DNA of 64,000 nt from positions 1-64,000 of the IMG/VR virus record IMGVR_UViG_3300042301_004349; one strand, given 5' to 3'. Position 1 is the first letter of the stretch. Every line of letters begins with the position of its first letter. The notes beneath the pieces are model-generated. The model did no database searches. It saw only the letters and a list, made by a program, of their open reading frames with translations, and was not told the DNA's origin. Of the stretch, positions 10,486-37,504 are shown in pieces. Source of the DNA: a virus. The position numbers and the translations under genes were made by a program.

Positions 10486-10636
10486 TTTGAATTAGTTGAG
10501 GATTTGTTTCTAATATATTTGATATAGCATGTACTATTTCTTCAGGTCCGAAGTGGGTTTTCCAATCATATTCATCAGCTACTTTATTAACCCATTCCAT
10601 GTAAAGTTTATATAATTCGTCTTTATTTATCTTCAT
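10457..10636 (-). CDS. hypothetical protein
   Basis: ATG at 10636 preferred. Confidence 0.6.
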   Translation of the reverse strand: MKINKDELYKLYMEWVNKVADEYDWKTHFGPEEIVHAISNILETNPQLIQNDREEKREA

Positions 10637-17046: not shown

Positions 17047-17072
17047 AAAAAAGGGAGTATTACCTCCCTTTT
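17047..17072 (-). terminator. intrinsic terminator, followed by class B promoter motif
   Basis: AAAAGGGAG-GTAATA-CTCCCTTTTTTT then ATATTTATA. Confidence 0.85.
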
Positions 17073-18267
17073 AATTTCCTTTAGATGGAAACCTAGTCCA
17101 TCCATTAACCCATATAGGTTTATCTAATTCAGGTATCACCACATCTATCTCTTTATTGCTCTTTGATAGTGCAAGAGTTTTCAATTGGTCATTTGTTAAG
17201 ATTGTAGTTGCTCTACTGATAAAGTTTAGTGTAGGGTTAAATGTTCCTACTGAATTGTTTTCAAATACTGAAGCTCCATCTTTGACGAATTGTGCAGTTT
17301 CATTACTTTCCAAACTTAAACCACCTTTCATCCAACCCCACACAACACTATTCTTCATTGTGAATTGTGTTGCTCTCCTAAATCTCAAACCTAAATTGTG
17401 GTTTGCTAACGCAGTAGACACATTCGGCCCAACTAAAACCATATTGTAAAGTTTTGGATGTGTATAAGGTTGTGCAGATGAGCCTGTTCCATCATTATCA
17501 CATTCTACACCATTTCCAGCATCACCATTATCTACGAATTGTGGGTCTCTCTTTGCTACACCATTTGTAATTGTTCCAGTGTATCCAAAATCAAAATCGA
17601 AATCATCATCTGCAGTAGCAAATGCATATAAGTTTCTAGGTGATACAGTTCCACCAAAGAATTCAAATGCATCATCATTAGCGTAGATAGTTTGAACATT
17701 CTCAATAATTGTACCACTACCAACCCCACCTAATGTTAGTGCGTTGATTTCAGAGTTTGGCATTGCCGCAATACCAGCATATTCAATTCTTACAAAACGA
17801 AGAACACCACTATTATCTAAATCGTTTGTTCCACCATAAGGTCTACCAATACCACCTTCGATTGTTGGTTCTGATGTTCTATTGGTTTTTGCTCTACCCA
17901 ATATTACAATTCCACCCCAATCACCAGGTGCCTTCTCACCATTTGCTCTACCTGATGTAAATACAATTGGTTTTGTTGCAGTTCCTTCCGCAATTATTTG
18001 TGCTCCTCTTTCGATACACAATGCTCCCTTTTCAGCAATATCGGATACAATTGTTGTACCAGGCTGAATGATAAGTTTTGCTCCATCGGTTACATATACA
18101 TAACCTTTCAATGTCCAAACTTTATCCGCAGTTAAAGTTGTTGTTGTATTGATGTTACCGGAAATTGTTGTTGATGTTGGGATGTTAATCGGCCCATCAC
18201 CACCACCCAATTCCTTTTCGCAACCCAATAACCCAAATGCTAAAATAGCTACTAATAGTTTTCTCAT
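17071..18267 (-). CDS. lipoprotein with beta-helix repeats, partner of TonB-dependent receptor
   Basis: lipobox LLGC; GDWGGIVILG, SGVLRFVRIEYAG, DDAFEFFGG, DDDFDFDFG; 4-nt overlap with receptor gene. Confidence 0.85.
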   Translation of the reverse strand: MRKLLVAILAFGLLGCEKELGGGDGPINIPTSTTISGNINTTTTLTADKVWTLKGYVYVTDGAKLIIQPGTTIVSDIAEKGALCIERGAQIIAEGTATKPIVFTSGRANGEKAPGDWGGIVILGRAKTNRTSEPTIEGGIGRPYGGTNDLDNSGVLRFVRIEYAGIAAMPNSEINALTLGGVGSGTIIENVQTIYANDDAFEFFGGTVSPRNLYAFATADDDFDFDFGYTGTITNGVAKRDPQFVDNGDAGNGVECDNDGTGSSAQPYTHPKLYNMVLVGPNVSTALANHNLGLRFRRATQFTMKNSVVWGWMKGGLSLESNETAQFVKDGASVFENNSVGTFNPTLNFISRATTILTNDQLKTLALSKSNKEIDVVIPELDKPIWVNGWTRFPSKGN

Positions 18268-20741
18268 AGATTCAAATTTAATGTTAATGAAATTGTTTGT
18301 TCGTTGTTTGTTTTTATTAGATTTCGGTTTTGTAACTTTTGATAATAGATTGATGGTTGCGCAAATACATCACCTATTGCCAATTTTAATTCTCCTTTTG
18401 GAAGTTTATGTAAGAATGTAATATCCAATACATCTCTACTATTTTCAAATATATTTGGATAACCCTGAAATCCTACTGCTGATATCCTATCCCCAACCCT
18501 ATTATATGTTATATTAAGAGTTTCATTCTTTTTATGAATGTTCACTCCACTATTTAGCACATAGTTTGATTGTCCCTGCAATTGTCTTTTTACGCCATTC
18601 ACTTCTACTTCGGAATTCATTATTGAAGCGTTTGTGTAAATGTCAAACCAATCATTTATTTTTTTACGGGCTTCCAACTCAACACCATATAGAATAGCTG
18701 AATTAGGGTTTGTGTAAGTTAATAATAGATTTGATGGAACTGAGCCATCAGCTACGATTTGTTCAATTGGTTTAATGAAGTTCTTACCAAATAGAGAAAG
18801 TGAAATGTTTTCACCTGCTTTTGGATACCATTCGTATTTAAGGTCTACATTATATATGTCAGATTTTTCTAACTTTGAGTTTCCTAATATTTGTGCGTTT
18901 CTAACAAAATCATAATAAGCAAAATTAGCTACTTCTCTAAACTCTGGTCTTGCTAATGTTTTACTTAATGAAAATCTATACTTTGTTTTTTCTTCGTTGT
19001 GTGAAAGGTTTATAGATGGTAATATATCCAAATACTCTCTATCTACATTTACTTTCTGTCCACTAAAATCTGCGGTTGATACATCGAATAAATTATACTC
19101 ACCTCTTAATCCAGTGTTTAATTTCCATTTACCAAATTCGGTATCATACATTGTATATAACGAACCCAAATCAAAATCAGCAGTATATCTATCAGTATTG
19201 TTTGTTATCTCATCTAACATATCAGTTGATAAGTTACGAAATATTCTAGCATTAAATCCTCTGATTCTTTTTAAGTATCCACCACCTACTTTAATATCTC
19301 CAAATTGTTTGTTGATGTTACCATTAAAAGAGTTCTCATCCATTACACTCCAAAAACGATATGTATCTCTCCACGCAGTTTGGTATGGTTCATCTACCCC
19401 CAATGATTTTGTAATTGGATTAACTCTATAATCGGGTTGTTCTCTGAAGGTGTATGTGTATCCTACATTGAAATCTAATGTTTTAACCTTACCATCTAAT
19501 TGAGAACTGATTATAACATTGTTGATATGATTTGATGCAGTAGATAAAACATTTTGCACATTATCAAAGTTATCACCAGTACGAGTTAGGTATGTATCAT
19601 CTGTTTGGTAGTTCACTAATGTTTTCCAGCTATATCTATTCTCACCCAAATAGGTTAAATTGAATAAACCATTTGTTGAAAATCGTTTTGTGAATAGAAC
19701 ATCTTTGTAATCGTATGCCAATTCGGTTGATGATTGATAATCCTTTCTATCAATGTTATTTATTGTGAATGAGTTCCTTACGGTAGAACTGAATAAAGAG
19801 TTCCATTTTCCTTTAACATACCCAAATGATAACCCTCCATTTAAATTCTGGGTGGATTGGATTGTTTCAGTTGATGGATTATTAAATAATTTGGTGTAAG
19901 CTCTCTTATCACCATTACCACTAATTCGGTATTTGTATGTGGACGGGAATGTGGAGGGGAAATCGGTAGCTTGAACTAACTTAAAATCTCTAAAAGTTGA
20001 AACCGAACCCCAACCACTTCCCGATGATATATTGAAAAAGTTATCGGATACTTCTTTTGTTGTTATTTGAACCAACCCACCACTCCAATCACCTGGCTGA
20101 TTTGCCGATGCTGATTTGGAGACTATAATGTTATCAATTAATGATGTTGGGATTATATCAAATGAAAATGCTCTCCTATCAGGTTCGGTTGATGGTAATT
20201 GTGTTTTATTTAGTAGAGCTGAATTGTATCTATCTGCTAATCCTCTTACTAATACAAACTTATCGTTTTGTATAGTTACCCCACTTACTCTTTTAAGTGC
20301 ATCACCAACATTTCTATCGGGAGTTTTCTTAATAAAATCAATTGATAATCCATCTGATACAACATTACTATTTCGTATTGTTCTTACAACTGCGGCTTCG
20401 GTTACCTTTTGAGAAACACTTCTTACAACAACTTCGGATAGTTGTTTTGCATCATCAGGAAATACAATATCAAATTCAGTGTCCTTATCAAATACTACTT
20501 CATTTGTATATTCAGTATATCCAACAAATGTAGATTTAATTTGGTATTTTCCTTCTTTTAATACGATAGAGTATTTCCCATCAGTATCTGATATTGTTGT
20601 GAAAATATCACCAGTTTGGTTTTTAAAAGAAATGTGAGAAAAGTAAAGTGTTTCCGATTTGGATTTTGTAACACCTTTGATTGTTACTTGCGAAAATAAT
20701 AGATTCGGCAAAAGTAACAATAGTAAAAAGAAACGATTCAT
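18264..20741 (-). CDS. TonB-dependent outer membrane receptor
   Basis: signal peptide + Q, carboxypeptidase-regulatory-like N-domain, LSEVVV, plug DALKRVSGVT...VRGLADRY, barrel FSLSKTLARPEFRE and DLKYEWYP. Confidence 0.93.
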   Translation of the reverse strand: MNRFFLLLLLLPNLLFSQVTIKGVTKSKSETLYFSHISFKNQTGDIFTTISDTDGKYSIVLKEGKYQIKSTFVGYTEYTNEVVFDKDTEFDIVFPDDAKQLSEVVVRSVSQKVTEAAVVRTIRNSNVVSDGLSIDFIKKTPDRNVGDALKRVSGVTIQNDKFVLVRGLADRYNSALLNKTQLPSTEPDRRAFSFDIIPTSLIDNIIVSKSASANQPGDWSGGLVQITTKEVSDNFFNISSGSGWGSVSTFRDFKLVQATDFPSTFPSTYKYRISGNGDKRAYTKLFNNPSTETIQSTQNLNGGLSFGYVKGKWNSLFSSTVRNSFTINNIDRKDYQSSTELAYDYKDVLFTKRFSTNGLFNLTYLGENRYSWKTLVNYQTDDTYLTRTGDNFDNVQNVLSTASNHINNVIISSQLDGKVKTLDFNVGYTYTFREQPDYRVNPITKSLGVDEPYQTAWRDTYRFWSVMDENSFNGNINKQFGDIKVGGGYLKRIRGFNARIFRNLSTDMLDEITNNTDRYTADFDLGSLYTMYDTEFGKWKLNTGLRGEYNLFDVSTADFSGQKVNVDREYLDILPSINLSHNEEKTKYRFSLSKTLARPEFREVANFAYYDFVRNAQILGNSKLEKSDIYNVDLKYEWYPKAGENISLSLFGKNFIKPIEQIVADGSVPSNLLLTYTNPNSAILYGVELEARKKINDWFDIYTNASIMNSEVEVNGVKRQLQGQSNYVLNSGVNIHKKNETLNITYNRVGDRISAVGFQGYPNIFENSRDVLDITFLHKLPKGELKLAIGDVFAQPSIYYQKLQNRNLIKTNNEQTISLTLNLNL

Positions 20742-20800
20742 AATTATCAAGTTAGTTCCCTAATAATTATAAATCGTTATTGTATTTTAATAGACTTTTA

Positions 20801-20838
20801 TATTAACAAATTATTAAGCTATTATGAACTAATATTAA
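20801..20838 (-). promoter_or_regulatory. putative OmpR/PhoB-family operator (11-bp periodic direct repeats)
   Basis: TTCATA-N5-TTAATA-N5-TTAATA at 20823/20812/20801, plus a fourth copy at 20833, upstream of the receptor. Confidence 0.4.
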
Positions 20839-21551
20839 TTTGGAAATATACCTTTTTTAACCATTCTATCTAAAATTCTAGCACAAGCAATATCTAGTGC
20901 TTTTTTAGTTGCTATAGAAATAGTTGATTGATTAAATTTCATTTCATCTACAGTTGCATCAGACAGGAATGTTAATTCTCTAGTTGTGGTTGCTTCACCT
21001 AACCCACTAGCAGCAAATACAACACCAGTTTCTGCATTGGTAAATCGAACTTGTAAACCTAAACGAGTTACCATCATATTCTTAACACCATCTTTAAGGT
21101 TGATGGTTTCATCTTCAGATACTGAGTAGTCATAACATTCAATTGTTACGAAGTACTCTGCTAGGTTAATTTTACCTCTACCATCTAATGGATTTTCAGC
21201 TATACCTGCTTGTGATGCTTGGAATTGCTTAACCATTCGGTTCTTAATCTCCGTTTTATCTTCGGTAAATTTGAAACGATTAAGGTTTTCTAGATATTCC
21301 ATTGAAATGTTAGCTACACCCAAACCTACTCTCTTTTCCTTTAATTCAGGGTACATTTCATACATTTCATCACTAATACCTGCTTTTAAGATTTGAATAG
21401 GAATTTGCTTACCTTCATAATCCATGAAGCGAGAAATATCAATTGCTGTTTCAAATGATGCTTTGTATTGTTCAGTTTTTGTTGAACCTACGTTTTGGGC
21501 ACTAACATTTATAGTTAGTAATAAACCCAATAATATTAATAAATTTTTCAT
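20835..21551 (-). CDS. secreted CsgG/TolB-N-fold protein
   Basis: signal peptide + Q; GLGVANISMEYLENLNRFKFTE, LGLQVRFTNAETGVVF..SGLGEA fit the CsgG-like pattern. Confidence 0.65.
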   Translation of the reverse strand: MKNLLILLGLLLTINVSAQNVGSTKTEQYKASFETAIDISRFMDYEGKQIPIQILKAGISDEMYEMYPELKEKRVGLGVANISMEYLENLNRFKFTEDKTEIKNRMVKQFQASQAGIAENPLDGRGKINLAEYFVTIECYDYSVSEDETINLKDGVKNMMVTRLGLQVRFTNAETGVVFAASGLGEATTTRELTFLSDATVDEMKFNQSTISIATKKALDIACARILDRMVKKGIFPN

Positions 21552-21860: not shown

Positions 21861-22469
21861 TTAGTGAGATTCGTCGTAAGCGTCTTTTAATAGACCACAT
21901 TTTTGACACTCTAATTCTCCGTCATTATCTGAGTCGCCCCAAACATGTTCGCAGTATCTATGTGCTTTCATTTCGTGTTCTAATTTTAATTTAGCCATTT
22001 CTTGTTCATGTTCCTGAGCATCTTTAGCCATTGCTTGATCGTGTTCTTGTTGATCAGCGGCTAATTCGTGATTTTGTTTGTTTTCAACTACAGCTAAATC
22101 TCTAGCTGCTGCTGCACCTGCTACAAATGCATCTGGGATTAATGGGGTGAGTGGCTTGTTGGTTTCTTTCATATCATTAGTATGACCTAAAGTAACACCA
22201 TCTTCCTCATCCATTTTTTGTACTAACATTTTATCTTTGTCAGTATCGCTGAACCAGTAATCAATAATTTTACCATAACTACCAATGAAGGCACCTAACA
22301 ATAACATTAATAATTCTTTCCATGCTGCGGCCATTGGTGTTTGTCCCACAACAGCAGCAAAAATACCTGCTATTATCAAAATAAACCCACCTAATACCAT
22401 TGCTGTGATGTACCATCTTCTGGACATCATCTTGTTTAATAATTCTTTAAATCCTGTGTTTGGTTGCAT
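21861..22469 (-). CDS. two-TM membrane protein with EH repeats and C-terminal Cys/His metal-binding motif
   Basis: 2 TM, IIDYWFSD, QEHDQAMAK/QEHEQEMAK repeats, CEH...CQKC. Confidence 0.75.
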   Translation of the reverse strand: MQPNTGFKELLNKMMSRRWYITAMVLGGFILIIAGIFAAVVGQTPMAAAWKELLMLLLGAFIGSYGKIIDYWFSDTDKDKMLVQKMDEEDGVTLGHTNDMKETNKPLTPLIPDAFVAGAAAARDLAVVENKQNHELAADQQEHDQAMAKDAQEHEQEMAKLKLEHEMKAHRYCEHVWGDSDNDGELECQKCGLLKDAYDESH

Positions 22470-22820: not shown

Positions 22821-23198
22821 TTATAGTTTGTTAAAGTCTGTTATTCCTAATTGTATTCCTTTAGAATCATATAATCCAATTCTATAAGCCGATGATGGTA
22901 ATGCTGATGTATATACCTTTAGTATATTATCACCTGCTTTTGCATTTATCGTCTCTTTTGATACAACTCTATTAGAAATATCAAAAATCTTAATTGTAAC
23001 TGGTTGAGCGGTTTCTAATTTAACATTCATAGCAACTTCAGTTGTTACGAATGCCGATTCTAATTTAAGTCCAACCGCATTTTGTATTTGTAGTTCTTTC
23101 TTAACTTCTACAATGGGCTCAATCAAATCATCTTTATAACATCCAGATAACAATGTTGTTACTAATACTATTGTAAGTATTCTTTTCATCGTGTTCAT
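22821..23198 (-). CDS. lipoprotein with T9SS-CTD-like/Ig-like domain
   Basis: lipobox LSGC-YKDD; VTIKIFDISNRVV...TSALPSSAYRIGL. Confidence 0.65.
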   Translation of the reverse strand: MNTMKRILTIVLVTTLLSGCYKDDLIEPIVEVKKELQIQNAVGLKLESAFVTTEVAMNVKLETAQPVTIKIFDISNRVVSKETINAKAGDNILKVYTSALPSSAYRIGLYDSKGIQLGITDFNKL

Positions 23199-23200
23199 TT

Positions 23201-23545
23201 TTAATTAATTTTAATGGTTGTTTTAGCTATTTGAGTTTTAGACCCATCTTCTAATACTAAGTATAAATATTGGGGTTGTATCGAACTCGTGTAAATTTTC
23301 TTTATGTTTTCACCCGTTTTACCATTGAACCTTTCTCTACTAATGACTTGGTCATTTACTTTATCAATTAAGGTTAATGTATAAATACCGTTTGATGGTA
23401 AATCAAAATATATAGATTGCCCATCAGTTACTAGGCTTTCAGACACACTAAATATCTTTTGTACAGGTGGTGGTGTTGGTTCAATTTCCATTTTGGTACA
23501 TCCCCACAATAACACCACAAATATGAATACTATTTTTTTCATCAT
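23201..23545 (-). CDS. lipoprotein, paralogue of 22821..23198
   Basis: lipobox LWGC; VISRE..NGKTGENIKKIYTSSI versus VVSKE..NAKAGDNILKVYTSAL. Confidence 0.7.
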   Translation of the reverse strand: MMKKIVFIFVVLLWGCTKMEIEPTPPPVQKIFSVSESLVTDGQSIYFDLPSNGIYTLTLIDKVNDQVISRERFNGKTGENIKKIYTSSIQPQYLYLVLEDGSKTQIAKTTIKIN

Positions 23546-25836
23546 TTGATTTTTACTTTTAATTGCCTACCAGCTTTATTAACCGCATCCGTTGTTGATA
23601 TAGATGTTAACCCTAATATATCAGTTATGTTGTTTATTGAGGTGAATATAATTTTATATTCTGTTGTTTTATCTAATATATCTCCACTTGTTATTAAAGA
23701 GCCTATATTAATAAAATTACCTCTATCAGTTCCAAAATTAGTAGGATTACCCTTTGTAGTAAATTCTACTTTTTCAAATTTTAATTTAGTATTATCATAA
23801 TTTAATTTAAATTGTGTTCCAACTAACTCTTGCTGTAATGGATCTACTGATAGTGTGATTATGACTTTGTTATTTATTAATTCTCCCATAGCTATTACAT
23901 TTATTTCATTTGTAATAGAATTATTCACCATACTCATACTTCTAATCGAATTACTACCCATATTGTTTATGCTTTGCTGAGCTGAATGGGATAGATTTAC
24001 ATCACCTAACCAAGTTACACTTATATTGTATGTGTTATTTAATCCACTCAATGTAAATGGTATTAGATTGCGAGTTGAATTAAATTGAGTACCCCAATTT
24101 GATGTTGTTATAGCATCATAGTCTGATTTATTATATAGCTTTAACAAATTAGTTAACGATGTTGATTGTGTTAATGATTGAGTACCTGTTAGGTGTTGTA
24201 AGAGTTTGTATGTATCACTTTCGTTGAATATACCATTACCATCTACATCTGCATTTAGATATTGTATACCATTTGTTAATCCCATACCACTTTGATTTCC
24301 AAATAACCCACCATCAGCTAATTCTTTAAATGCTAAATATACATCTGATACACCAACTATATTATTATATAATGTATTTAGTTCTGTTTGATTTGAATGT
24401 ATTAATTCTATTCCGTGTGGTTTATATACCATTATTGGTGAGAAAGAAAACTCCGATTGTAATCCCCAAAAGAACCCAGCTCGTCTTATATTAGCCGTAA
24501 ATGATGAACCTGCGAAATTAAATTCGGTTGGTGTAGAAATCCAATATGCTGCCCAAGTACCATCATCCCACTGATATGTTACAGGCCCATCCCATAAATC
24601 AAATAATTTTAAATGTGTAACATTGTTTGAAGAGATATTTGTACCTGCAAACTCTCTTTTATCAATTAGAATTTGGTATCGTTGGTTTTGGGGTTCATAA
24701 TCATATACTACACACCACTCAACTTGTCCAGCGCTTGTATTTGCTCTAACTCCCCCACTACTAACTCTAGCCGTATCTAATAAGGTTGTCAAATCCACTT
24801 TACCTAATCCACTTAATTGTCTAGCAGTTCCGTTTACTACATTCCAGTTATTATTTGTAAATGTATATCCTTTTGCTGTAAATTTAGTTTCATCTACATT
24901 AGTTCCAAAATCAATATTGAATGATGCCCTTAATACTTCTCCGTTTGAATGAGTTACACTATTAGTATAGAATTCAGTAAATGTTGCATCATCAGGATTA
25001 GTCCAAGTTCCATATTCAATTACATAAGGATTGGACCAATTATTTGATAAATCGTTCCAACTTGATACCCCATTCCATTTTGCCACTGCATAGTTCTCAC
25101 TACCATTACTACCATTTGGTTCACCAGGTGCCCAGTTATTATATACACCAGGAATATTTCCATTAGTTTGTCCATTTTGGGTTTTCATTGTTATACCCTT
25201 TTCAGGCCCAGCATCAATTTTCCAAGTCCCATCAACAACCTCATCGGTTGCCGCAAACCATACATTTGTTGCAGGAACATTAGCAAATATAAAAGCATCT
25301 TCGGAAGCTGATGTTATTGTTACTAGATAACCTTGCTGTCCTTTGAATGTAGTTAATAATGATCTAGATCTTGCGTTTGTATATGTGGTTCTTTCATTAG
25401 TTGCAGTTATAGGTCTATAAAAGTGTCCATTCACACCATTGTAAAAATAACCAACGGGATTTACAGTTGCTGCTACTGATAATTGAACATTACCAACTAT
25501 CGAACCTGTGTTTATTTTTAATGATGCTAATGCAGTATTAATATCTGCCATTGTTCCCAATACCACCAAACGAGTTTTATTACCTGATAGAGTAAATCCA
25601 CTTGCAGCAATTAATCCTCTCGTTTCATTAAGATAAAATGTAGTATTTGTTGATGGATTTATTAAACTGATTGATGCTAATAAAGTAGATGTTGCACTAA
25701 ATCCACTTAATACGAATCCACTACCATCTTGTCCGTTTGTAGATGGTATAAAAGATTTAGAGTCCGGAGCAGATACACTCTGTCCGAACCCTAAAAATGA
25801 TATAAATAAAAATAATGTAACTAATAAGTGTTTCAT
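23542..25836 (-). CDS. secreted C-type lectin / dockerin-like / cohesin-like protein
   Basis: signal + Q; NGHFY...YLVTITS...WAPGEPN...WND; ADVDGNGIFNESDTYKLL; VGTQFKLNYDNTKL. Confidence 0.8.
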   Translation of the reverse strand: MKHLLVTLFLFISFLGFGQSVSAPDSKSFIPSTNGQDGSGFVLSGFSATSTLLASISLINPSTNTTFYLNETRGLIAASGFTLSGNKTRLVVLGTMADINTALASLKINTGSIVGNVQLSVAATVNPVGYFYNGVNGHFYRPITATNERTTYTNARSRSLLTTFKGQQGYLVTITSASEDAFIFANVPATNVWFAATDEVVDGTWKIDAGPEKGITMKTQNGQTNGNIPGVYNNWAPGEPNGSNGSENYAVAKWNGVSSWNDLSNNWSNPYVIEYGTWTNPDDATFTEFYTNSVTHSNGEVLRASFNIDFGTNVDETKFTAKGYTFTNNNWNVVNGTARQLSGLGKVDLTTLLDTARVSSGGVRANTSAGQVEWCVVYDYEPQNQRYQILIDKREFAGTNISSNNVTHLKLFDLWDGPVTYQWDDGTWAAYWISTPTEFNFAGSSFTANIRRAGFFWGLQSEFSFSPIMVYKPHGIELIHSNQTELNTLYNNIVGVSDVYLAFKELADGGLFGNQSGMGLTNGIQYLNADVDGNGIFNESDTYKLLQHLTGTQSLTQSTSLTNLLKLYNKSDYDAITTSNWGTQFNSTRNLIPFTLSGLNNTYNISVTWLGDVNLSHSAQQSINNMGSNSIRSMSMVNNSITNEINVIAMGELINNKVIITLSVDPLQQELVGTQFKLNYDNTKLKFEKVEFTTKGNPTNFGTDRGNFINIGSLITSGDILDKTTEYKIIFTSINNITDILGLTSISTTDAVNKAGRQLKVKIK

Positions 25837-27485
25837 TATTCTATGATTAAGTCTATTTTGTTTCCTTTAGCATCTACTGCATCTGATAAAATAAAGAAGA
25901 ATAAACCTGCTGTATTTGTTAAAGTTGTCTTTGGTGTGAATATTAATTTGTATGGAGTACCAACTTTGATTCTTGCTGTTTTTAATTGATCAATAGAACC
26001 AAATGTTAATCTACCACTATTGTGTGTTGAGAAGTTAGTAATTGTGCTTCCAGCATCAAATATAATATTATCTAATGTTAATTTAGATTCATCATAATTC
26101 ATTATAACTTGCAAACCAGCTAATTCTGCTTTAGTTAAAGTTGTAGTTAATATAACTTTACCATTTTCTAAAGTAGACGTTACACTTAATTTAGCAGTTT
26201 CTACAGCTTCTGTTTGATAAGCCATTATAGATGGTACACTCATAGATCTTTTTAAATTCACTTCACCATTGATTGAGTTAGTATACAAACCACTACTGAT
26301 TCTAGTTGCAATTACTGCAGGATCTGATGAATGTGACCAGTTTAAATCACCACCCCATGCAAATACAGCATGAACTTCTTTTATTGGAGTATCAATTAAA
26401 ACTTTATTCTTAACTACCCCATCCAACCAACTTTGGTTTAATAAACCACTCTGCCATCTTACTGATGTTGAGGTTGATGTTGGGATAGAGGCAATAGTTG
26501 ACATATTTTGTCCCATTACATGAGCAAATAAAGCATAGGAATCGGATTCATTAAATACATTATCATTTAATGTTACGTTACCAACTTTAGTTTCTAAATT
26601 AGGATAAGTGAAGAAATTTGGTGTACCCCCAATATCAGTTTGTGAATGACCTAAGAAGGCTTTATATGCGTCTGATACAGTTACGATATTGTTCATCCAA
26701 GCTTTAGTCATTGTTGGTCCTACGAATACACCAACTGAGTCTCCAACTTTAACTTGTGTTGTAAATAATGCTTCACCACTACCATCTAATGGTAATTGGG
26801 CAATTGGTTGTTGTGCCCAATCAATAGTTCCATCAACTTTTAATTTCATTAACTGGACATTGTGGTCAGTAATAGTATATCCTTGTGGGAATAATACTTT
26901 AACTTTAAATTGCGATGTATTACCAGTTACGTTTGTTAATGATAAATTTGTAGCACTACGAGTAATAGGTGTAATGTTAGCAGAAGCATCATTAACGGCA
27001 TAAGCTAAATCTAATTTATGGATATCGTTATAAGTGTTCTGGTCTTTCAATACAAATTTTTGAGTTGCTATATCACCATTGATTGAAGCATCAGTTCTTT
27101 GAACTGTTAATTGTCCAACATTCCAATCGTTGTTTACTGCATATCCCCAAGGAGTAGCTTGATATTGTCCAGATAAACTAGTAACAGCAACATTTGCTGT
27201 TGGAGTGAATGCGTAGTTATTCCAACCTGTAAAGAATGTTTGGACTGATGTTCCTTGTGAGAACACCGTACTATTTGGTACCATAGCTAAAGCCTTATTA
27301 TTGAATGAATATCTCATCCAAAAATAACGAGGTGTTGTTGTACCTCTAGCTATTGTGTATTTTACAGTTAAGGTATCACCAACCTGATAAGGTGGGGCTG
27401 GTGTTACAGATTGTGATACGGAAATTTGACTAAATGATGTTAAAGATGTTAGGAATATTCCTAAAAATAATAATAATTTTTTCAT
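25836..27485 (-). CDS. secreted cohesin-like / dockerin-like / cohesin-like protein
   Basis: signal + Q; VGDTLTVKY..RYSFNNKAL; VTVSDAY..GNVTLNDNVFNESDSY..GDLNWS; LAGLQVIMNYDESKL. Confidence 0.75.
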   Translation of the reverse strand: MKKLLLFLGIFLTSLTSFSQISVSQSVTPAPPYQVGDTLTVKYTIARGTTTPRYFWMRYSFNNKALAMVPNSTVFSQGTSVQTFFTGWNNYAFTPTANVAVTSLSGQYQATPWGYAVNNDWNVGQLTVQRTDASINGDIATQKFVLKDQNTYNDIHKLDLAYAVNDASANITPITRSATNLSLTNVTGNTSQFKVKVLFPQGYTITDHNVQLMKLKVDGTIDWAQQPIAQLPLDGSGEALFTTQVKVGDSVGVFVGPTMTKAWMNNIVTVSDAYKAFLGHSQTDIGGTPNFFTYPNLETKVGNVTLNDNVFNESDSYALFAHVMGQNMSTIASIPTSTSTSVRWQSGLLNQSWLDGVVKNKVLIDTPIKEVHAVFAWGGDLNWSHSSDPAVIATRISSGLYTNSINGEVNLKRSMSVPSIMAYQTEAVETAKLSVTSTLENGKVILTTTLTKAELAGLQVIMNYDESKLTLDNIIFDAGSTITNFSTHNSGRLTFGSIDQLKTARIKVGTPYKLIFTPKTTLTNTAGLFFFILSDAVDAKGNKIDLIIE

Positions 27486-27489
27486 AATG

Positions 27490-28140
27490 TTATTTTTCAA
27501 ATAATTTTGTGACTAATTTATCACAACCTTTTTTGAGAGCATTACTTAGTGAAGTTTGGTTGAATTTACCACCTTCATCCACAAGTAAAGTAGACATTGA
27601 AATTTCAGATGAAGATTCTTCAACAATTATTTCTTTTTCTTTTATCCCATCTTTATATAGGATTCCTTTTAAACGAATGATTACTTCTTCTTCACCTTTA
27701 TGAAAAACTGAAATGTTTTTCTTGGTAGTTAGTACATCTAGATAAATAATTTCAACACGTAATTTATTTTCAGCCTCTGATGATATATTGTATCCTTTAT
27801 CTTGTAAATATTCTTCTAATACGTTTTTAACGCCAAATTCTAAATTACGGTTACCTGCTAATTTACCAACAACTACTTTGTTAGTAACTTTTTCAACATA
27901 GATATGTTCATCTGCGTTGTACCAAATGTTACCTGGGGAGTTTTTGAATGTACCGTCGATTTTATGACTAATTGCATTAGACATTTGTAAATTTTCTTCA
28001 TAAGATTTAAAGAAGTGGCTATATACAAAATATAATTGTACGAATAATGCCGCTATTACAAATGATCCTAGTAAGTATAACACACCTTGCGCAAACACAT
28101 CACGCAGATTGGTGGCCAGGGTAATGGCTTTTTGTTTCAT
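27490..28140 (-). CDS. membrane-anchored CsgG/LptE-like fold protein, paralogue of 20835..21551
   Basis: N-terminal TM; LEFGVKNVLEEYL and KFNQTSLSNALKKG align with the 238-aa protein. Confidence 0.6.
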   Translation of the reverse strand: MKQKAITLATNLRDVFAQGVLYLLGSFVIAALFVQLYFVYSHFFKSYEENLQMSNAISHKIDGTFKNSPGNIWYNADEHIYVEKVTNKVVVGKLAGNRNLEFGVKNVLEEYLQDKGYNISSEAENKLRVEIIYLDVLTTKKNISVFHKGEEEVIIRLKGILYKDGIKEKEIIVEESSSEISMSTLLVDEGGKFNQTSLSNALKKGCDKLVTKLFEK

Positions 28141-28208: not shown

Positions 28209-28217
28209 AGCAAATTG

Positions 28218-28594
28218 TGGAGGTGAAGGGAGTCGAACCCTTGTCCAAATACGGATTTAATAAATCTCGTTCACAAGCTTAGTTCGTTTTTCTAAACTGA
28301 ACAAAATATTCGGTTGGTTCTTCACCATCGGCAACCGATAAACAATGGGTGATTCGATTTCGGGTTCAATCACTTTTCCACCTTGGTACACATTCTATTT
28401 TAAGTCCCACGATGTGTGCGGGAGGGATTAGGCAGCTACTGCGTAATCAGCACCAACGAATGCCATAGCATCTTCGAAGGTCATTGTAGATAATTCTACG
28501 TCATTTATTGTTCGATAGGTATTTACGGATTTCCATCTAACCCGGCTTGCATCAACTCACCAACTCATCGCACCTGTCAAAACCAGGCACCCCC
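28218..28594 (-). ncRNA. ssrA: tmRNA
   Basis: 5' GGGGGTGCCTGGTTTTGAC, 3' GGGTTCGACTCCCTTCACCTCCA, G3.U70 pair; tag ORF 28428..28502 encodes DVELSTMTFEDAMAFVGADYAVAA*. Confidence 0.95.
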
Positions 28595-28917: not shown

Positions 28918-29038
28918 AACAATAAATATTAGATACACTGTCTGTACTGTTAAACTGTCTCAATACTACCTTTATCGTAGCAGAGGTTTTCTTCATTCTT
29001 AGCGTCCGTCCAGTCCTTCTTTCGAAGCAGTGTATTTG

Positions 29039-29122
29039 TACCAGGAGCGGGAATCGAACCCGCACTCGCGTTGGCGAACAAGATTTTAAGTCTTGCGTGT
29101 CTACCTATTCCACCACCCCGGC
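29039..29122 (-). tRNA. tRNA-Leu(TAA)
   Basis: type II cloverleaf, CAAGA-CTTAAAA-TCTTG. Confidence 0.95.
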
Positions 29123-29163
29123 ATATGCAACTTTTAAACCACCCAATGAGTTGCCAACATATG

Positions 29164-29322
29164 CTGTAGGGGAAGGATTCGAACCTCCACGCGGCGATTC
29201 GATAAATGACATTTTTGCTAGCTAGCCTGTGGTCAACCCATTATCATTTATCTGTCTCGAACTCCGCACCCTCGAGACGGGAGGGTATGTCTGCCAAGCG
29301 TACGCCTTTTCACCACCCTACA
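29164..29322 (-). ncRNA. aberrant tRNA-like RNA (159 nt) with about 80-nt variable arm
   Basis: acceptor TGTAGGG/CCCTACA-G, T-arm GGAGG-TTCGAAT-CCTTC, anticodon arm CCCTC-CCGTCTC-GAGGG. Confidence 0.8.
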
Positions 29323-29325
29323 ATT

Positions 29326-29553
29326 CTAGTTAATTCTTGTTTGATTACGTCTTACTTCTTCTGCTTCTTTATAAACTCTAACCCAAGTTAAAAATACATC
29401 AACAGGAGCTAAAATCCAACACATAATAATTAGAGCTAGACTTTCAAGACCTGGTGATATTCCTAGACCACCAGACATGACATCTCTGTTCCATTTTTTA
29501 ATAGACATTACAATGCAGTAAAAAAAGCAAGTAAGGTAATAAATCCAAAACAT
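29326..29553 (-). CDS. small membrane protein
   Basis: two hydrophobic segments. Confidence 0.65.
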   Translation of the reverse strand: MFWIYYLTCFFYCIVMSIKKWNRDVMSGGLGISPGLESLALIIMCWILAPVDVFLTWVRVYKEAEEVRRNQTRIN

Positions 29554-29555
29554 AA

Positions 29556-29765
29556 CTATTGTTTAAAGTGTTTTTCAAGTGCTTCAATCTTATCTTCAGC
29601 ATCAACTAACATTTGTAATGCTTCTTCAGCATTGTTATAAAAGTCTTTTGTTGAATGATCTCCGATCCCAGCAGCATGGTTAGATAATAAATCTAGAGAT
29701 AGTAGTGCTTTTGTTTTTTCAGCAACTGCCGAAGCCATAAGCATGTCATATAATTCTTTTTTCAT
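29556..29765 (-). CDS. conserved small phage protein
   Basis: AGIGDHS helical-hairpin motif; class A promoter 29771-29802. Confidence 0.75.
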   Translation of the reverse strand: MKKELYDMLMASAVAEKTKALLSLDLLSNHAAGIGDHSTKDFYNNAEEALQMLVDAEDKIEALEKHFKQ

Positions 29766-29845
29766 ATATTGTTAATTTACACTTTTCTTTTTGCCCATCC
29801 AACATCTTTTTAAATTTTTTATTATGTCAAATAAACGTTGGCACG

Positions 29846-29919
29846 TGGGCCTGGTAGGAATCGAACCTACTACCTTCACATTATGAGTGTGCCGCTCTAA
29901 CCGATTGAGCTACAGGTCC
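29846..29919 (-). tRNA. tRNA(CAT), probably Ile2 (lysidine type)
   Basis: CT-CAT-AA loop; C4:G69 and C5:G68 TilS determinants; no initiator features. Confidence 0.85.
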
Positions 29920-29925
29920 TTGTTG

Positions 29926-29997
29926 AGCTCCCACTCGGAATCGAACCAAGTTATCGTGATTACAAGTCACGCGCATCGCCAGCAATGCTTTAGGAGC
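29926..29997 (-). tRNA. tRNA-Thr(TGT)
   Basis: CGTGA-CTTGTAA-TCACG. Confidence 0.9.
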
Positions 29998-30004
29998 ATT
30001 AATG

Positions 30005-30076
30005 GGTGTAAGGACGGTATCGAACCGTCTTATCGAGCTCCACAAACTCGCGCTTCACCTTAAAGCTTCAGACACC
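30005..30076 (-). tRNA. tRNA-His(GTG)
   Basis: CGAGT-TTGTGGA-GCTCG, G-1:C73; two acceptor-stem mismatches. Confidence 0.85.
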
Positions 30077-30087
30077 ATGTATTTTAG

Positions 30088-30159
30088 TACTCAGTACGGG
30101 ATTCGAACCCGTATTACATCCGTGAAAGGGATGTGACCTAGCCCTTAGTCGAACTGAGC
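30088..30159 (-). tRNA. tRNA-Glu(TTC)
   Basis: CATCC-CTTTCAC-GGATG. Confidence 0.95.
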
Positions 30160-34644: not shown

Positions 34645-34804
34645 TTAAACCTAATTTATCTAATTCAATTATATAAGTGTTAGGTTCATCATTTATTTTA
34701 GATAGTTCTTCTTTTAATAGATCCCATTGCTTAGGAGTTGGTTGATATTCATGACAAGCCTCAACAAATCCTTTCAACCAGATTATAAATTCTTTACTTG
34801 TCAT
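34625..34804 (-). CDS. small phage protein
   Basis: MTSKEFIIWLKGF...PTPKQWD motif. Confidence 0.65.
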   Translation of the reverse strand: MTSKEFIIWLKGFVEACHEYQPTPKQWDLLKEELSKINDEPNTYIIELDKLGLNVTTTK

Positions 34805-36047
34805 CTTCTTTAATTTTAACATTATTATCTAATATCTCAATTAGCTTCTCTCCCATTTTTTCTAAGCTAAATTCATTACGACAAATATACGACTGTCTTT
34901 TTGCTTTTTCAACATATTCTTTATAATCAGTATAAACTGTTTTTAAAGCTAAAGTAGCTTCATCATAATTAGGAGTAAACCATTTTGACTCAGCTATCAA
35001 CATGTTTTCAACCACTGCACTCTTATCTATTGGTTTTAATTCACCTCCAACAAACATACTGAATTCTTTGTTTAGGAAATCTGTATGTCCACTCCACCCA
35101 CTTACAATAATTGGTTTTTGTGACTGAGTGAATTCAATTAGGGGTCTACCATAGCCTTCTCCTTTAGTTAAACTAAACATAGCTTTTACTTTTGGATGAT
35201 TATATAAACTATTCATTTCATCATCAGTTAATTCACCATGTAGTAAATAAATGTTTGGTAAATCACCTCCAACTTTTGATTTAATTTCTTCAATTTTAGC
35301 AATCATAGCATCTCTATCCATAATTGAATAAGTACCTCCATTTACTTTTAAAATCAATCCTGGTTTTACTTTTCTATCTTTAAATGCTTGGAGGAATGTT
35401 GCAATCGTGCCTCCCATATTTTTTCTATCTTCACCAAAATCACCTTGTAACCAATGGCCTACAACTAAGAAATTAAAATGTTCAGGTATGCCTTCTAAGA
35501 CATAATCTATATCTTTATTTATTTCTGTTGTTTTATTATAAATTTTAGTATCAACCCCTTCAAATAACACTTCCATAGGAACTGTAGTTTGAATAATTCC
35601 TACAACTTCTTCAGGATTATCTTTTTTACGTTGCTCATACTTAGAATTTAAAAATACATTTTTAGCATGTTTGCAGGATGTTAATACTAAATCCATTCTA
35701 TTACAACCTTCAATCCATGTTGTTGAACATAAATCTGTTTCAATACCAGCTGTAATTCCAATATTATATTTACCTACCTTTTGAAATTCATTAGGTACAG
35801 TAATCTGAATCCAAATGTCTGGAGTTTGATCTAGTCTAGTATTACTTGGTTGAATACAATCAATAATCTTTTTATGATCAGGATTACTTGGTTGAAGGAA
35901 ATTTTGTGGTGTACCACCCCATTTTTGTGATAGGATTTTTACTTCATATTTGTCTGAATCAATGAGTGCTTTTACTACATCTCTTGATCTTGCTCCGTAT
36001 CCACTAAATGTATTTACTGGAGCACTTATTGCTATAACTGGTTTCAT
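34794..36047 (-). CDS. GT-B (GT4-like) glycosyltransferase
   Basis: SGYG, RKN, KGEGYGRPLIEF. Confidence 0.88.
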   Translation of the reverse strand: MKPVIAISAPVNTFSGYGARSRDVVKALIDSDKYEVKILSQKWGGTPQNFLQPSNPDHKKIIDCIQPSNTRLDQTPDIWIQITVPNEFQKVGKYNIGITAGIETDLCSTTWIEGCNRMDLVLTSCKHAKNVFLNSKYEQRKKDNPEEVVGIIQTTVPMEVLFEGVDTKIYNKTTEINKDIDYVLEGIPEHFNFLVVGHWLQGDFGEDRKNMGGTIATFLQAFKDRKVKPGLILKVNGGTYSIMDRDAMIAKIEEIKSKVGGDLPNIYLLHGELTDDEMNSLYNHPKVKAMFSLTKGEGYGRPLIEFTQSQKPIIVSGWSGHTDFLNKEFSMFVGGELKPIDKSAVVENMLIAESKWFTPNYDEATLALKTVYTDYKEYVEKAKRQSYICRNEFSLEKMGEKLIEILDNNVKIKEDDK

Positions 36048-36049
36048 AA

Positions 36050-37504
36050 CTATTTTGCTATTAAATAAGGATTATAATTTAAAGGTTGTTCAGGAGTTTT
36101 AACATGTATTAGTTCATATGAATATCTTGGTTGAAATTTTTCAAGAGTTTCTTCAATACCACTAATAACATTTTTAGACATCCATCTAGCAGACATCATT
36201 GATTCATCTGATGTTACCCATTCACGAGCAGCTTTACCTCTTTCTTCAAAATTTTGAGGTGTGATTGTTTTAAGACCATATAATACTGATATTTGTTCAG
36301 CAATGTCTTCTGGTGTTATCCTATCATCAAATATATAAGGTGTTGGTTGTGAGCCTACTAAACTTAGATTATTTGGGAATATCGGGAAAGCCCATTTGCC
36401 ACAGTTTTTATATTTACCTCTATGATTTGATCCAAATTCAGGAGTGAATTTAATCCATTTACCATTTTCATCTTCAAAACGCATTTGGTCTTGCATACCT
36501 CCAGTTACGGTTGCTATAATAGGTTTACCTACCATCATTGCCTCAGTTAAAGACAATCCCCATCCTTCATTACTACTAGGTAATATAGTGGCATCACAAG
36601 AATTATAAAGTAAATTCATTACCTGCACTGGTTGTTTACCTTGGGATATGATAATACTTTTATCGTTTCTTCCAAAAAGCATTTCTTTAACTGCAATCAA
36701 ATCACTACCATGTTCATCTTTAGGTTGTGTGTGCATTACTAAGCAAACCTTGTCTGCTTGTTTTGGTGATAATGTATCTAAGAATAATTTCCAACCTAAC
36801 ATCAAATCAGGAACTGATTTGCGTCTTATGTTTCTAGCATTATATAATAAACTAAAATCATATTCTTTTTCACTGAATAATTGTTTTTTGTACTCTTGTA
36901 AAGCTAAATATTCAGGTTTAGTTTCATCAATTGGATAGAAATGATCTTCATTTATACCATGAGGCACATATTTAATCACTTTCTCTTCAGCTACATCTCC
37001 CAATACTACTCTATTAATGTTTTCTGTTTGTTTGCTGATTGCAAATAAAGTATCACATGATTCATAGTATGATTTGTTATACATTGGGTATGGAATACTA
37101 TCCCAAATATTTAAATAAATAAGTGGAACTTGTTTTCTTAACTCATGTTCAAACTGAAATAACCAAATCCAGTATCTAGGATCTGTGAAAATCATTATTG
37201 CATCTGGTTTTTCTAAATGCATTATTTGTTTAACATATTCTATAGTACCATATCCTTTAACGGGATAAATAAATACACTAGCATCTTCAATCTTAGCATA
37301 TTCATTAGTACTAGCACATATGTCCATCTTTTTACCTTCTTCAGGGTGGTTTACACCACCTCCTAAGTTGACCCAATTAAAGTGATGAGCGGTACCCACT
37401 ACTATTTCTCTAGCCATAGTGGATATACCGCTCGTCATTCTAATATCATCACAAAGTAATAAGATTTTTTTTCTTTGTTCTTGTGGGATATAACCTTCTT
37501 TCAT
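36050..37504 (-). CDS. GT-B (GT4-like) glycosyltransferase
   Basis: VPHG, RNIRRK, NEGWGLSLTEAM, TGGMQDQ. Confidence 0.9.
   Translation of the reverse strand: MKEGYIPQEQRKKILLLCDDIRMTSGISTMAREIVVGTAHHFNWVNLGGGVNHPEEGKKMDICASTNEYAKIEDASVFIYPVKGYGTIEYVKQIMHLEKPDAIMIFTDPRYWIWLFQFEHELRKQVPLIYLNIWDSIPYPMYNKSYYESCDTLFAISKQTENINRVVLGDVAEEKVIKYVPHGINEDHFYPIDETKPEYLALQEYKKQLFSEKEYDFSLLYNARNIRRKSVPDLMLGWKLFLDTLSPKQADKVCLVMHTQPKDEHGSDLIAVKEMLFGRNDKSIIISQGKQPVQVMNLLYNSCDATILPSSNEGWGLSLTEAMMVGKPIIATVTGGMQDQMRFEDENGKWIKFTPEFGSNHRGKYKNCGKWAFPIFPNNLSLVGSQPTPYIFDDRITPEDIAEQISVLYGLKTITPQNFEERGKAAREWVTSDESMMSARWMSKNVISGIEETLEKFQPRYSYELIHVKTPEQPLNYNPYLIAK

Follow-up and report, generated by a model that had tools for sequence, protein, structure and literature searches.

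Cohesin folds and dockerin-like calcium modules in two adjacent, putatively exported phage proteins

The window analyzed here is a 64-kb stretch (64,000 nucleotides) of a 171-kb phage genome. The phage is a large lake-water (freshwater) virus presumed to infect Flavobacteriales (Flavobacteria-type bacteria), a host assignment based on one short MAG contig and on Bacteroidota-type signals. Two adjacent genes on the minus strand (Table 1), both present as claimed in the original prediction, encode products of 764 aa (ORF1; model pLDDT 79.4) and 549 or 554 aa (ORF2; pLDDT 89.3). Translation of ORF2 from the TTG at 27500 would yield 554 aa and from the ATG at 27485 549 aa; the latter is the likelier start, since it is used by the public gene calls (P0001) and yields a clean signal peptide. 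The operon is compact, with overlapping stops and starts (the ORF1/lip114 junction is ATGATGA), and the order p216-ORF2-ORF1-lip114-lip125 is kept across 80 phage loci. Translational coupling suggests a fixed stoichiometry.

Table 1. Genes and protein features at the locus (positions in the window)
Feature	Position	Strand	Residues and remarks
lip125	22821..23198	(-)	small lipoprotein, cognate partner of ORF2-type proteins; C-Y-K-D-D surface-export signal
lip114	23201..23545	(-)	small lipoprotein, cognate partner of ORF1-type proteins; start overlaps ORF1 stop
ORF1	23542..25836	(-)	764 aa; signal peptide, N-terminal beta domain, C-type lectin, mid beta domain, dockerin-like module, X segment, linker, cohesin
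ORF1 C-terminal cohesin domain	23545..23913	(-)	aa ~640-764 (642-764)
ORF1 flexible linker	23914..23967	(-)	aa 624-641; pLDDT <50 at 624-641
ORF1 X segment	23968..24171	(-)	aa 556-623; ends in nearly invariant GDVNLSHS, aa 611-618
ORF1 dockerin-like helical module	24172..24390	(-)	aa 483-555; degenerate first repeat NNIVGVSD plus helix, then Ca loop plus helix
ORF1 middle beta-rich domain	24391..24969	(-)	aa 290-482; model secondary structure
ORF1 C-type lectin domain	25000..25464	(-)	aa 125-279; EPN 239-241, WND 260-262
ORF1 signal peptide	25783..25836	(-)	aa 1-18; predicted cleavage before Gln19
ORF2	25836..27485 (27500 from TTG)	(-)	signal peptide, N-terminal cohesin, beta domain, dockerin-like module, X segment, linker, cohesin
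ORF2 C-terminal cohesin domain	25839..26213	(-)	aa 425-549; homologous to ORF1 cohesin
ORF2 flexible linker	26214..26288	(-)	aa 400-424; pLDDT <50 at 406-418
ORF2 X segment	26289..26510	(-)	aa 326-399; GDLNWSHS at aa 379-386
ORF2 dockerin-like module	26511..26714	(-)	aa 258-325; NNIVTVSD plus helix, loop plus helix
ORF2 second beta domain	26715..26921	(-)	aa 189-257; strands in model
ORF2 N-terminal cohesin-fold domain	26922..27428	(-)	aa about 19/20-188
ORF2 signal peptide	27429..27485	(-)	aa 1-19; predicted cleavage before Gln20
p216	27490..28140	(-)	first gene of conserved cassette; YajG/TraT-like envelope protein

Three domains that had been described as cohesin-like, at the C-terminus of ORF1 and at both ends of ORF2, are modelled as true cohesin folds (Z 13-14 in confident AlphaFold models). 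The C-terminal domain of ORF1 superimposes on 6kgf_C (VIA Z 14.1, rmsd 2.2 Å over 124 aa), matches many cohesins at Z >13, and is matched by Pfam Cohesin (E 3.8e-4, 21.1 bits). The N-terminal domain of ORF2, which has no second copy in the genome, superimposes on 1g1k_A (VIA Z 13.2, rmsd 2.3 Å over 131/143 aa), and its top 49 structural matches are cohesins only. PDB cohesins are matched by the ORF2 family profile at positions 423-492 (E down to 8.9e-6), ORF2 residues 19-549 can be aligned with the 3l8q cohesin dyad, and Pfam Cohesin is matched by 28/56 and 13/36 relatives (best E 3.3e-10). In addition, the module profile recovers a true five-cohesin scaffoldin (E 2.6e-12).

Cellulosomal scaffoldins and type I/II pairs (1ohz, 2vn5, 3l8q, 3kcp) share this fold and the Ca-loop-plus-helix repeat with the phage proteins, and the two cohesins of ORF2 resemble a mini-scaffoldin. 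In contrast to those systems, the phage proteins come without dockerin-bearing enzymes, a CBM, or an SLH or sortase anchor; a first Ca loop is absent, the segment designated X follows the dockerin-like module instead of preceding it, and the setting is a phage-infected Gram-negative Bacteroidota host. The non-cellulosomal cohesins of Clostridium perfringens glycosidases and Archaeoglobus fulgidus likewise assemble secreted proteins outside cellulose degradation, and all four such structures, 2w1n, 2jh2, 2vo8 and 2xdh, are among the top structural matches. Those proteins are, however, cellular and mostly enzymes, and none is viral or lectin-headed.

The original prediction had placed cohesin-like and dockerin-like modules together in both proteins. 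Cohesins do accompany a dockerin-like calcium module in each, but full dockerin status was not borne out. In ORF1, the module (modelled helices 496-508, 523-529 and 539-550) contains one canonical Ca loop, DVDGNGIFNESD, at aa 530-541. Its match to Pfam Dockerin_1 is sub-threshold, with 13.9 bits against a cut-off of 22.9; the E value is 0.064 for the isolated segment and 0.012 in the genome scan. PDB dockerins match at E 0.02-0.6, and in Atlas language-model features the module lies at 0.94 to Dockerin_1 clusters. All of the weak Pfam and PDB matches are dockerins, with no EF-hand family among them. The ORF2 module (helices 270-281, 295-302 and 313-323) matches that of ORF1 at E 7e-6, and PDB dockerins align at profile positions 301-331 (E 0.07-2); its second loop is degenerate, with 13 residues including a one-residue insertion, NVT(L)NDNVFNESD. 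Among relatives, the second loop is canonical in 33/36 of the ORF1 type, whereas the first is canonical in 0/92. Single-loop (group-2 truncated) dockerins of Ruminococcus flavefaciens are functional in cohesin binding (PMC12270676; 9gvb), and the one-loop state of the ORF1 module corresponds to theirs. The group-2 dockerins are, however, short single-repeat modules on cellulosomal proteins, while in ORF1 and ORF2 the first repeat persists as a helix whose loop is degenerate.

The predicted common C-terminal block of ~290 aa was recovered (BLASTP alignment of ~300 aa with 29% identity, E 6e-17), and the motifs V(T/G)VSD.Y.AF, FNESD(S/T)Y, W.GD(L/V)N.SHS, G.Q...NYD..KL and DAV...G are all present and conserved family-wide. 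It forms a fixed cassette at the C-terminus of both proteins, in which a dockerin-like module is followed by the X segment, a linker of ~20 residues and a cohesin. In ~190 clusters, the dockerin-like module, X and cohesin are never split and keep the same C-terminal order, and in nearly every relative no more than a few residues follow the cohesin-fold domain. The X segment of ORF1 has a pLDDT of about 90; within its motif G611, D612 and S618 are invariant and N614, S616 and H617 near-invariant, while in the ORF2-type motif D380 is invariant and G379, S384, H385 and S386 are near-invariant. The family is abundant in metagenomes. It has no member among GenBank phages, none turned up in 400 Flavobacteriales genomes, and a scan of 81 genomes from the presumed host family gave no Cohesin match.

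The lectin predicted for the 764-aa product was recognized by Pfam Lectin_C above the cut-off (25.8 vs 22.6 bits) and by structure (VIA Z 14.4, rmsd 2.1 Å over 118 aa), and its EPN/WND stretch was located by PDB alignment. These residues would make it a calcium-dependent, mannose-type (EPN) lectin. As the domain contains no cysteines, it lacks the canonical disulfides of C-type lectins. The middle beta-rich domain also occurs in PA14-headed relatives (phmmer mapping). Heads in relatives are, without exception, of glycan-binding types (PA14/GLEYA, Lectin_C, LCCL) and never enzymes; an enzyme domain was found in none of 92 scanned relatives, which upholds the claim of an enzyme-free system. Comparable Ca-dependent sugar-binding heads occur in yeast PA14/GLEYA flocculins, Epa adhesins and animal C-type lectins (langerin, Mincle, SP-D), the EPN/WND site of ORF1 corresponding to the last and the PA14/GLEYA heads of its relatives to the first. 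Here, however, a cohesin-dockerin cassette takes the place of the repeat stalk and its GPI or membrane anchor.

Secretion, as claimed, is supported by the N-terminal signal peptides predicted for both proteins, each followed by Gln. The pattern recurs in ORF1 relatives, and Q20 is invariant in the ORF2 type (56/56), consistent with the Bacteroidetes rule of a Gln right after the signal peptide (PMC5837995). Neither protein has a lipobox, a match to T9SS domain models or a recognizable route across the outer membrane. Thus, lacking a T9SS C-terminal domain and a lipobox, they may remain in the periplasm. The optimal lipoprotein surface-export signal is C-X-K-(D/E)2-X (PMC5080379), a pattern that the lip125 signal fits; lip114 has a lipobox and C-T-K-M-E, with C-Q-K-D-E in relatives. 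Both lipoproteins are probably surface-exposed. In distant phages, a lip114-type gene comes immediately after the ORF1-type gene, as a lip125-type gene does after the ORF2-type gene in loci L089-L091, and where the two large genes are separated each still keeps its own lipoprotein gene. The product of p216, always upstream of the ORF2-type gene, matches Pfam Lipoprotein_16 (27.2 bits, cut-off 25), as do 9/15 relatives.

No other gene of the phage encodes a cohesin or a dockerin-like module, and the block is confined to these two genes in the whole genome. The partner set of three cohesins and two dockerin-like modules is therefore closed, and any cohesin-dockerin pairing must occur between or within ORF1 and ORF2. 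From this set, the domain identities, the export signals and the gene coupling, we infer binding, stoichiometry, final location and benefit as follows. Both proteins, Sec-exported, modular and non-enzymatic, would be made during infection and most likely joined by cohesin-dockerin-type contacts into small hetero-oligomers, for which the spare N-terminal cohesin of ORF2 would be the obvious acceptor of a dockerin-like module. The cognate lipoproteins lip114 and lip125 would retain these oligomers at the outer membrane, such that the infected cell displays a multivalent lectin, either for adhesion to glycans of neighboring cells or particles or for masking its own surface glycans. This is the best explanation of the whole, and we put it at slightly under an even chance, given the sub-threshold module without a first loop, the degenerate ORF2 loop, the missing outer-membrane route and a cassette that fits an intramolecular pair equally well.

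Such intramolecular closure, in which the dockerin-like module folds back onto its own C-terminal cohesin without bridging subunits, is unlikely but a serious contender. It would produce a stable, calcium-stiffened terminal knob serving as a stalk or as a docking site for the cognate lipoprotein, of which each cassette has one gene. The constancy of the cassette points in this direction, as do the low-confidence linker before the cohesin in both models, which would suffice for fold-back, and the pTM of 0.75 for the five-domain ORF2, which suggests packed domains. Against this, the extra N-terminal cohesin of ORF2 would be left partnerless in the closed set, and binding in trans is documented for proteins of the Amy4 type.

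Amy4, of the Ruminococcus bromii amylosome, likewise combines a cohesin with a dockerin in a single exported, non-cellulosomal protein. The cohesin of Amy4 recognizes the dockerin of the same protein and those of others, so that self-association and mini-complexes are expected (PMC4611034), and Amy4 is thereby a precedent for a cohesin-dockerin protein that binds itself. It differs in that it is a GH13 enzyme, comes from a Gram-positive gut bacterium and has a canonical dockerin with two loops; ORF1 and ORF2 are phage-encoded and enzyme-free, with lectin or cohesin heads, a half-degenerate dockerin-like module and the fixed dockerin-X-linker-cohesin cassette. The multimers inferred for Amy4 would accord with the original prediction of open head-to-tail polymerization, in which each dockerin-like module enters the cohesin of the next subunit and the chains branch at the second cohesin of ORF2; the product would be a large cellulosome-like lattice, free of enzymes and with lectins at its tips. 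Each subunit does have both halves of a pair, ORF2 has a cohesin to spare, the partner set is closed, and coupling suggests fixed stoichiometry. However, a flexible tether at low concentration would favor closure in cis, the ORF2 loop is degenerate, and three cohesins with two dockerin-like modules permit chains but do not require them. The linker and the never-split cassette fit closure and chain formation equally, and we regard a lattice as rather improbable.

There is little likelihood that the C-terminal cohesin-fold domain is mainly a sorting or anchoring signal, like a T9SS C-terminal domain or one recognized by the envelope proteins of the cassette, instead of a dockerin receptor. Its strictly terminal position would suit such a role; its best viral structural neighbor, A0A6J5M064 (E 1e-20), is annotated with a T9SS sorting domain, and the neighboring lipoproteins show a weak resemblance to domains of this kind (lip125 has weak DUF3244 and Por_Secre_tail similarity). 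Nevertheless, the T9SS models match neither protein, the modelled fold is a full nine-strand cohesin and not a seven-strand sorting domain, and no fusion of lip-like domains to ORF1- or ORF2-type proteins was found. Least probable are virion parts, i.e., fibers or decoration proteins whose lectin binds host glycans and whose cohesin-dockerin modules attach them to the particle: lectin or Ig-like domains are frequent in phage receptor-binding and decoration proteins, and another gene of the genome encodes a 123-aa phage protein with a dockerin-type loop, but PHROGs match neither protein, relatives whose N-terminus is complete begin with a signal peptide of the cleavable type and then Gln whereas virion assembly is cytoplasmic, and both genes lie among replication and auxiliary genes, beside lipoproteins and membrane proteins.

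Bacterial cellulosomes are classically held together by a plug-and-socket, the pairing of cohesin with dockerin, on which protein engineers also rely heavily. In this phage, the last ~300 residues of the lectin-bearing ORF1 product share 29% identity (BLASTP, E value 6e-17) with the product of the adjoining ORF2, which carries two cohesins. The common C-terminal block noted in the original prediction is thus real, and every motif quoted there is present in ORF1 and ORF2 and is kept in their relatives. The block consists of a dockerin-like module, a short segment X, a linker and a cohesin, and was found nowhere else in the phage genome. Of the two possible starts of ORF2, the ATG that yields a 549-residue protein appears more likely than the upstream TTG, since it is used by public gene calls and opens a clean signal peptide; residue numbers follow the 549-residue form. 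The genes are coupled by stop/start overlaps, TAATG at the ORF2-ORF1 junction and ATGATGA between ORF1 and the downstream lipoprotein gene lip114.

Coordinates of the cassette and of other features of the phage (window positions unless a locus, L, is named)
Feature	Position	Strand	Remarks
ORF1	23542-25836	minus	764 aa, real ORF
ORF2	25836-27500	minus	554 aa from TTG; 549 aa from ATG at 27485
GD(V/L)(N/D)xSHS, ORF1	23989-24003		aa 612-616
GD(V/L)(N/D)xSHS, ORF2	26328-26348		aa 380-386
Envelope protein gene p216	27490-28140
Lipoprotein gene lip114	23201-23545
Lipoprotein gene lip125	22821-23198
Membrane protein gene p202	21861-22469
p238	20835-21551
TonB-dependent-receptor-like barrel (828 aa) and adjoining 398-aa gene	17071-20750		between p238 and p451
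tmRNA-like gene and five tRNAs	28217-28594 and 29038-30159		just upstream of cassette; ARAGORN
GroEL-type chaperonin, and two glycosyltransferase-like genes next to each other	41150-42778 and 34794-37504
Lipoprotein genes, distant phage L090	L090:3569-3943 and 10625-10960		directly downstream of large genes
Lipoprotein genes, distant phage L091	L091:3476-3850 and 10628-10969		directly downstream of large genes
123-aa protein gene	L083:1228-1599	minus	~131.8-132.2 kb of phage genome

Cohesins (Pfam PF00963) are nine-stranded beta-sandwiches of ~140 residues that can be superposed on solved cohesins. Residues 640-764 of ORF1 and 19-188 of ORF2 adopt this fold in AlphaFold2 models built with family alignments (ORF2: pLDDT 89.3, pTM 0.75; ORF1: pLDDT 79.4, pTM 0.54). 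The best PDB matches of ORF2 in Foldseek are cohesins (probability 1.00), as are all of its best 49 matches in the VIA-align search, in which residues 19-188 superpose on the Clostridium cellulolyticum cohesin 1g1k with Z 13.2 and an rmsd of 2.3 A over 131 of 143 residues. The ORF1 domain aligns with cohesins over 124 residues (Z 14.1; rmsd 2.2 A), and a Foldseek-independent search of 48,161 chains again returned cohesins and C-type lectins, so that cohesins dominate both kinds of search. At the sequence level, ORF1 scores 21.1 bits against Pfam Cohesin, just under the 24.1-bit cut-off, and ORF2 has no match. Matches at E values up to 0.01 were obtained for 28 of the 56 ORF2-type and 13 of the 36 ORF1-type relatives scanned (best E value 3.3e-10), and family profiles matched PDB cohesins (best E value 8.9e-6). 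A profile of the two shared modules also finds P0379, a five-cohesin scaffoldin (E value 2.6e-12), which is itself recognized as Pfam Cohesin (E value 2.4e-50).

ORF1 residues 125-279 correspond to C-type lectins (Z 14.4; rmsd 2.1 A; 118 residues) and score 25.8 bits against Pfam Lectin_C (PF00059), over the cut-off of 22.6. The Ca/sugar-site motifs EPN (239-241) and WND (260-262) are present and were aligned to surfactant protein D. The domain contains no cysteine, hence the conserved disulfides of C-type lectins are absent, and its long-loop region (218-248) is modelled at pLDDT < 50. Together, the fold and sequence matches confirm the cohesins, including the N-terminal one of ORF2, and the lectin of the 764-residue protein, as originally proposed.

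The proposed dockerin-like modules stand in part. A type I dockerin (PF00404) comprises two tandem ~22-residue repeats, each a 12-residue Ca loop followed by a helix. In ORF1, loop A (DVDGNGIFNESD) is a canonical 12-residue loop (D1, N/D3, D/N5, G6, F8, D12), as it is in 33 of 36 ORF1-type sequences. In contrast, the first loop is canonical in none of the 92 relatives: the upstream repeat (NNIVxVSD plus helix) retains only positions 5, 8, 9, 11 and 12. Loop A is canonical in 23 of 56 ORF2-type proteins, among which D12 is invariant, and is degenerate in the ORF2 of this phage, where one residue is inserted and position 3 is Thr (NVT(L)NDNVFNESD). Both ORF1 and ORF2 show an internal repeat, [DN]N[IV][VF]xxSDxYxx[FL], and the helices predicted by the models are consistent with a loop-helix, linker helix, loop-helix arrangement.

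Submitted alone, ORF1 residues 483-560 match only Dockerin_1 in Pfam (E value 0.064; 13.9 bits against a cut-off of 22.9) and no EF-hand family; the ORF2 segment does not match Dockerin_1, which is found at E values below 0.01 in only three of the 92 relatives. Family profiles give weak PDB matches (E values 0.02-2) at exactly this segment, all to dockerins save one chain titled 'serine protease' (8x39/8x3a), and language-model features of ORF1 residues 480-625 lie nearest to Dockerin_1 clusters (0.94; 19 of 30 matches). The ORF1 module is dockerin-like, with one working-looking Ca site, and is not a certified dockerin. As group-2 dockerins of Ruminococcus flavefaciens with a single Ca loop bind cohesins (PMC12270676), the missing loop does not exclude function of the module.

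Downstream of the dockerin-like module, segment X forms three strands and ends in GD(V/L)(N/D)xSHS. No other motif in the family is conserved as well, with D, S, H and S near-invariant in the 92 sequences. It resembles an EF loop at positions 1, 3 and 5 and lacks the acidic position 12. A stretch of ~20 residues with pLDDT < 50 joins segment X to the C-terminal cohesin.

Which partners are available was assessed with searches of the whole phage genome. ORF1 alone matches Pfam Cohesin, the dockerin-like segment of ORF1 retrieves only ORF2 (E value 7e-6), and the N-terminal cohesin of ORF2 is unique. No further dockerin-like or cohesin gene was found in the phage, which thus lacks the dockerin-bearing enzymes on a multi-cohesin scaffoldin that make up a cellulosome, and Pfam Cohesin was absent from all 81 genomes searched in the family presumed to contain the host. 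The searches therefore delimit a closed set, held by two adjoining, coupled genes: three cohesins plus two dockerin-like modules. It follows that the cohesins, if they bind dockerins at all, must do so with the module of the other protein or of the same one, and that one cohesin is always spare.

Tentatively, we favor a model in which the ORF1 and ORF2 products would form small Ca-dependent hetero-oligomers, and in which these putative complexes would be tethered by their cognate lipoproteins so as to display a multivalent lectin in the envelope of the infected cell. Amy4 of Ruminococcus bromii, whose cohesin binds its own dockerin and for which multimers were inferred (PMC4611034), is a tested precedent for such self-binding. 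The flexible tether between segment X and the cohesin would equally allow each cassette to close on itself in cis, an arrangement that we regard as rather unlikely. It would likewise allow the open head-to-tail polymer of the original prediction, which we consider improbable. The interpretation offered there is partly supported, and the observation beneath it is confirmed.

ORF1 and ORF2 each have thousands of close metagenomic relatives, and only 191 clusters match the module at 50% clustering among 1.84 billion representatives searched. Full-length members carry all three parts at the C-terminus, and in one and the same order. Two kinds of N-terminal region are distinguished: the ORF2 type has an extra cohesin, and the ORF1 type has a common middle domain behind a sugar-binding head. 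Among the 36 ORF1-type proteins, this head is PA14/GLEYA 19 times, Lectin_C ten times and LCCL twice. No enzyme or catalytic domain was detected among the 92 relatives, in agreement with the enzyme-free scaffold originally suggested. The family has no match in GenBank phages at the DNA or protein level, neither ORF1 nor ORF2 matches PHROGs or NCBIfam, and none of the papers listed by literature searches on phage-encoded cohesins and dockerins described cohesin-dockerin pairing in a virus. In ORF1 and ORF2, the cohesin-dockerin principle takes a new form that is carried by a phage, has lectin heads and lacks enzymes.

Among ~186,000 species genomes, the only cellular match is contig JBIPMA010000251.1 (3368 bp), binned into a Schleiferiaceae MAG from Lake Mendota, which carries an ORF2-type and an ORF1-type gene with 81% identity. 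This contig is probably a piece of phage DNA that was mis-binned with the host genome, and hints at both host and habitat; a further 400 Flavobacteriales genomes contained no match to the family. In every complete relative, an N-terminal signal peptide is succeeded by Gln; in the alignment of ORF2-type proteins this residue, Q20, is shared by all 56 sequences. Gln in this place is the Q-rule of Bacteroidetes signal peptidase I substrates (PMC5837995). Together with the Schleiferiaceae match, these features point to a Flavobacteriales host and to Sec export of both proteins, and argue against a role in the virion.

Gene order is conserved in 80 related viral loci as p216-ORF2-ORF1-lip114-lip125-p106-p202-(p82)-p238-p451. 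The TonB-dependent-receptor-like pair of this phage is present in only ~9 of the 80 and looks like an accessory insertion. In more distant phages, the ORF1-type and ORF2-type genes lie ~4 kb apart and each is directly followed by its own lipoprotein gene, of the lip125 type after ORF2 and of the lip114 type after ORF1. Following the lipobox, lip125 reads C-Y-K-D-D, which fits the optimal export signal of Bacteroidota surface lipoproteins, C-X-K-(D/E)2-X (PMC5080379); C-Q-K-D-E or C-S-K-E-D is present in many relatives of lip114. The single beta domain of these lipoproteins has weak similarity to DUF3244 and to T9SS sorting domains, and a search for lip125-like domains fused onto longer proteins gave two uninformative matches. 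ORF1 and ORF2 gave no match to the T9SS type A C-terminal domain models (TIGR04183/PF18962) at E values up to 1 in Pfam or 0.1 in NCBIfam; a T9SS sorting domain is annotated on the best viral structural neighbor, which is distant.

The p216 family matches Lipoprotein_16/YajG in nine of 15 members and TraT in three of 15. In this phage p216 has an N-terminal membrane helix, while most relatives have a cleavable signal peptide. A CsgG-like identity of neighboring genes was not reproduced: the curli channel CsgG (PF03783) was found nowhere in the phage genome at E values up to 1, with working controls, nor among the PDB matches of the p216 family profile. The p216 and p238 products share no pairwise similarity.

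In large freshwater phages, the family counts thousands of metagenomic members, and sugar-binding heads and partner lipoproteins always go with it. If the modules bind, a multivalent lectin complex placed by these phages would reshape the surface of the host. Such an auxiliary function would be of a new kind and relevant, in lakes, to aggregation, attachment to particles or superinfection exclusion; the dockerin-X-cohesin cassette, compact and sufficient in itself, would add a new module for assembly. Should the modules close only in cis, the family would still show a cohesin-dockerin pair turned into a single structural domain. More speculatively, and in our view doubtfully, a widespread clade of lake phages might make its Bacteroidota host build, on the cell surface, a lectin-tipped lattice of cohesins and dockerins that is self-assembling, Ca-dependent and anchored by phage surface lipoproteins, and that would alter how infected cells adhere to one another, to particles or to incoming phages. 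In that case a virus would, for the first time, have put the principle of cellulosome assembly to use, and in adhesion instead of catalysis.

The window covers the opening 64 kb of a virus record of 171,171 bp with direct terminal repeats; GC is ~32%, and almost every gene lies on the minus strand. The phage encodes a family-B DNA polymerase, which among GenBank phages is best matched by that of Microcystis phage Mel-JY01 at only 36% identity, as well as GroEL, ribonucleotide reductase, a DnaB-like helicase and DNA ligase. It also has two glycosyltransferase-like genes next to each other. The tmRNA-like gene specifies a 24-residue tag ending in YAVAA and is accompanied by tRNAs for Leu, Met, Thr, His and Glu. 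Two additional Ca-type loops were noticed. The membrane protein p202 has a His/Glu/Gln-rich repeat region and, at its C-terminus, another EF-like loop (GDSDNDGELECQKCG) adjoining a Cys pair. A 123-residue protein without a signal peptide contains DINNDGKVNKTD, a canonical loop of the dockerin/EF type, and next to it SYLA (Pfam Dockerin_1, E value 7e-4, below the cut-off); this could be a chance occurrence or a cytoplasmic Ca loop.
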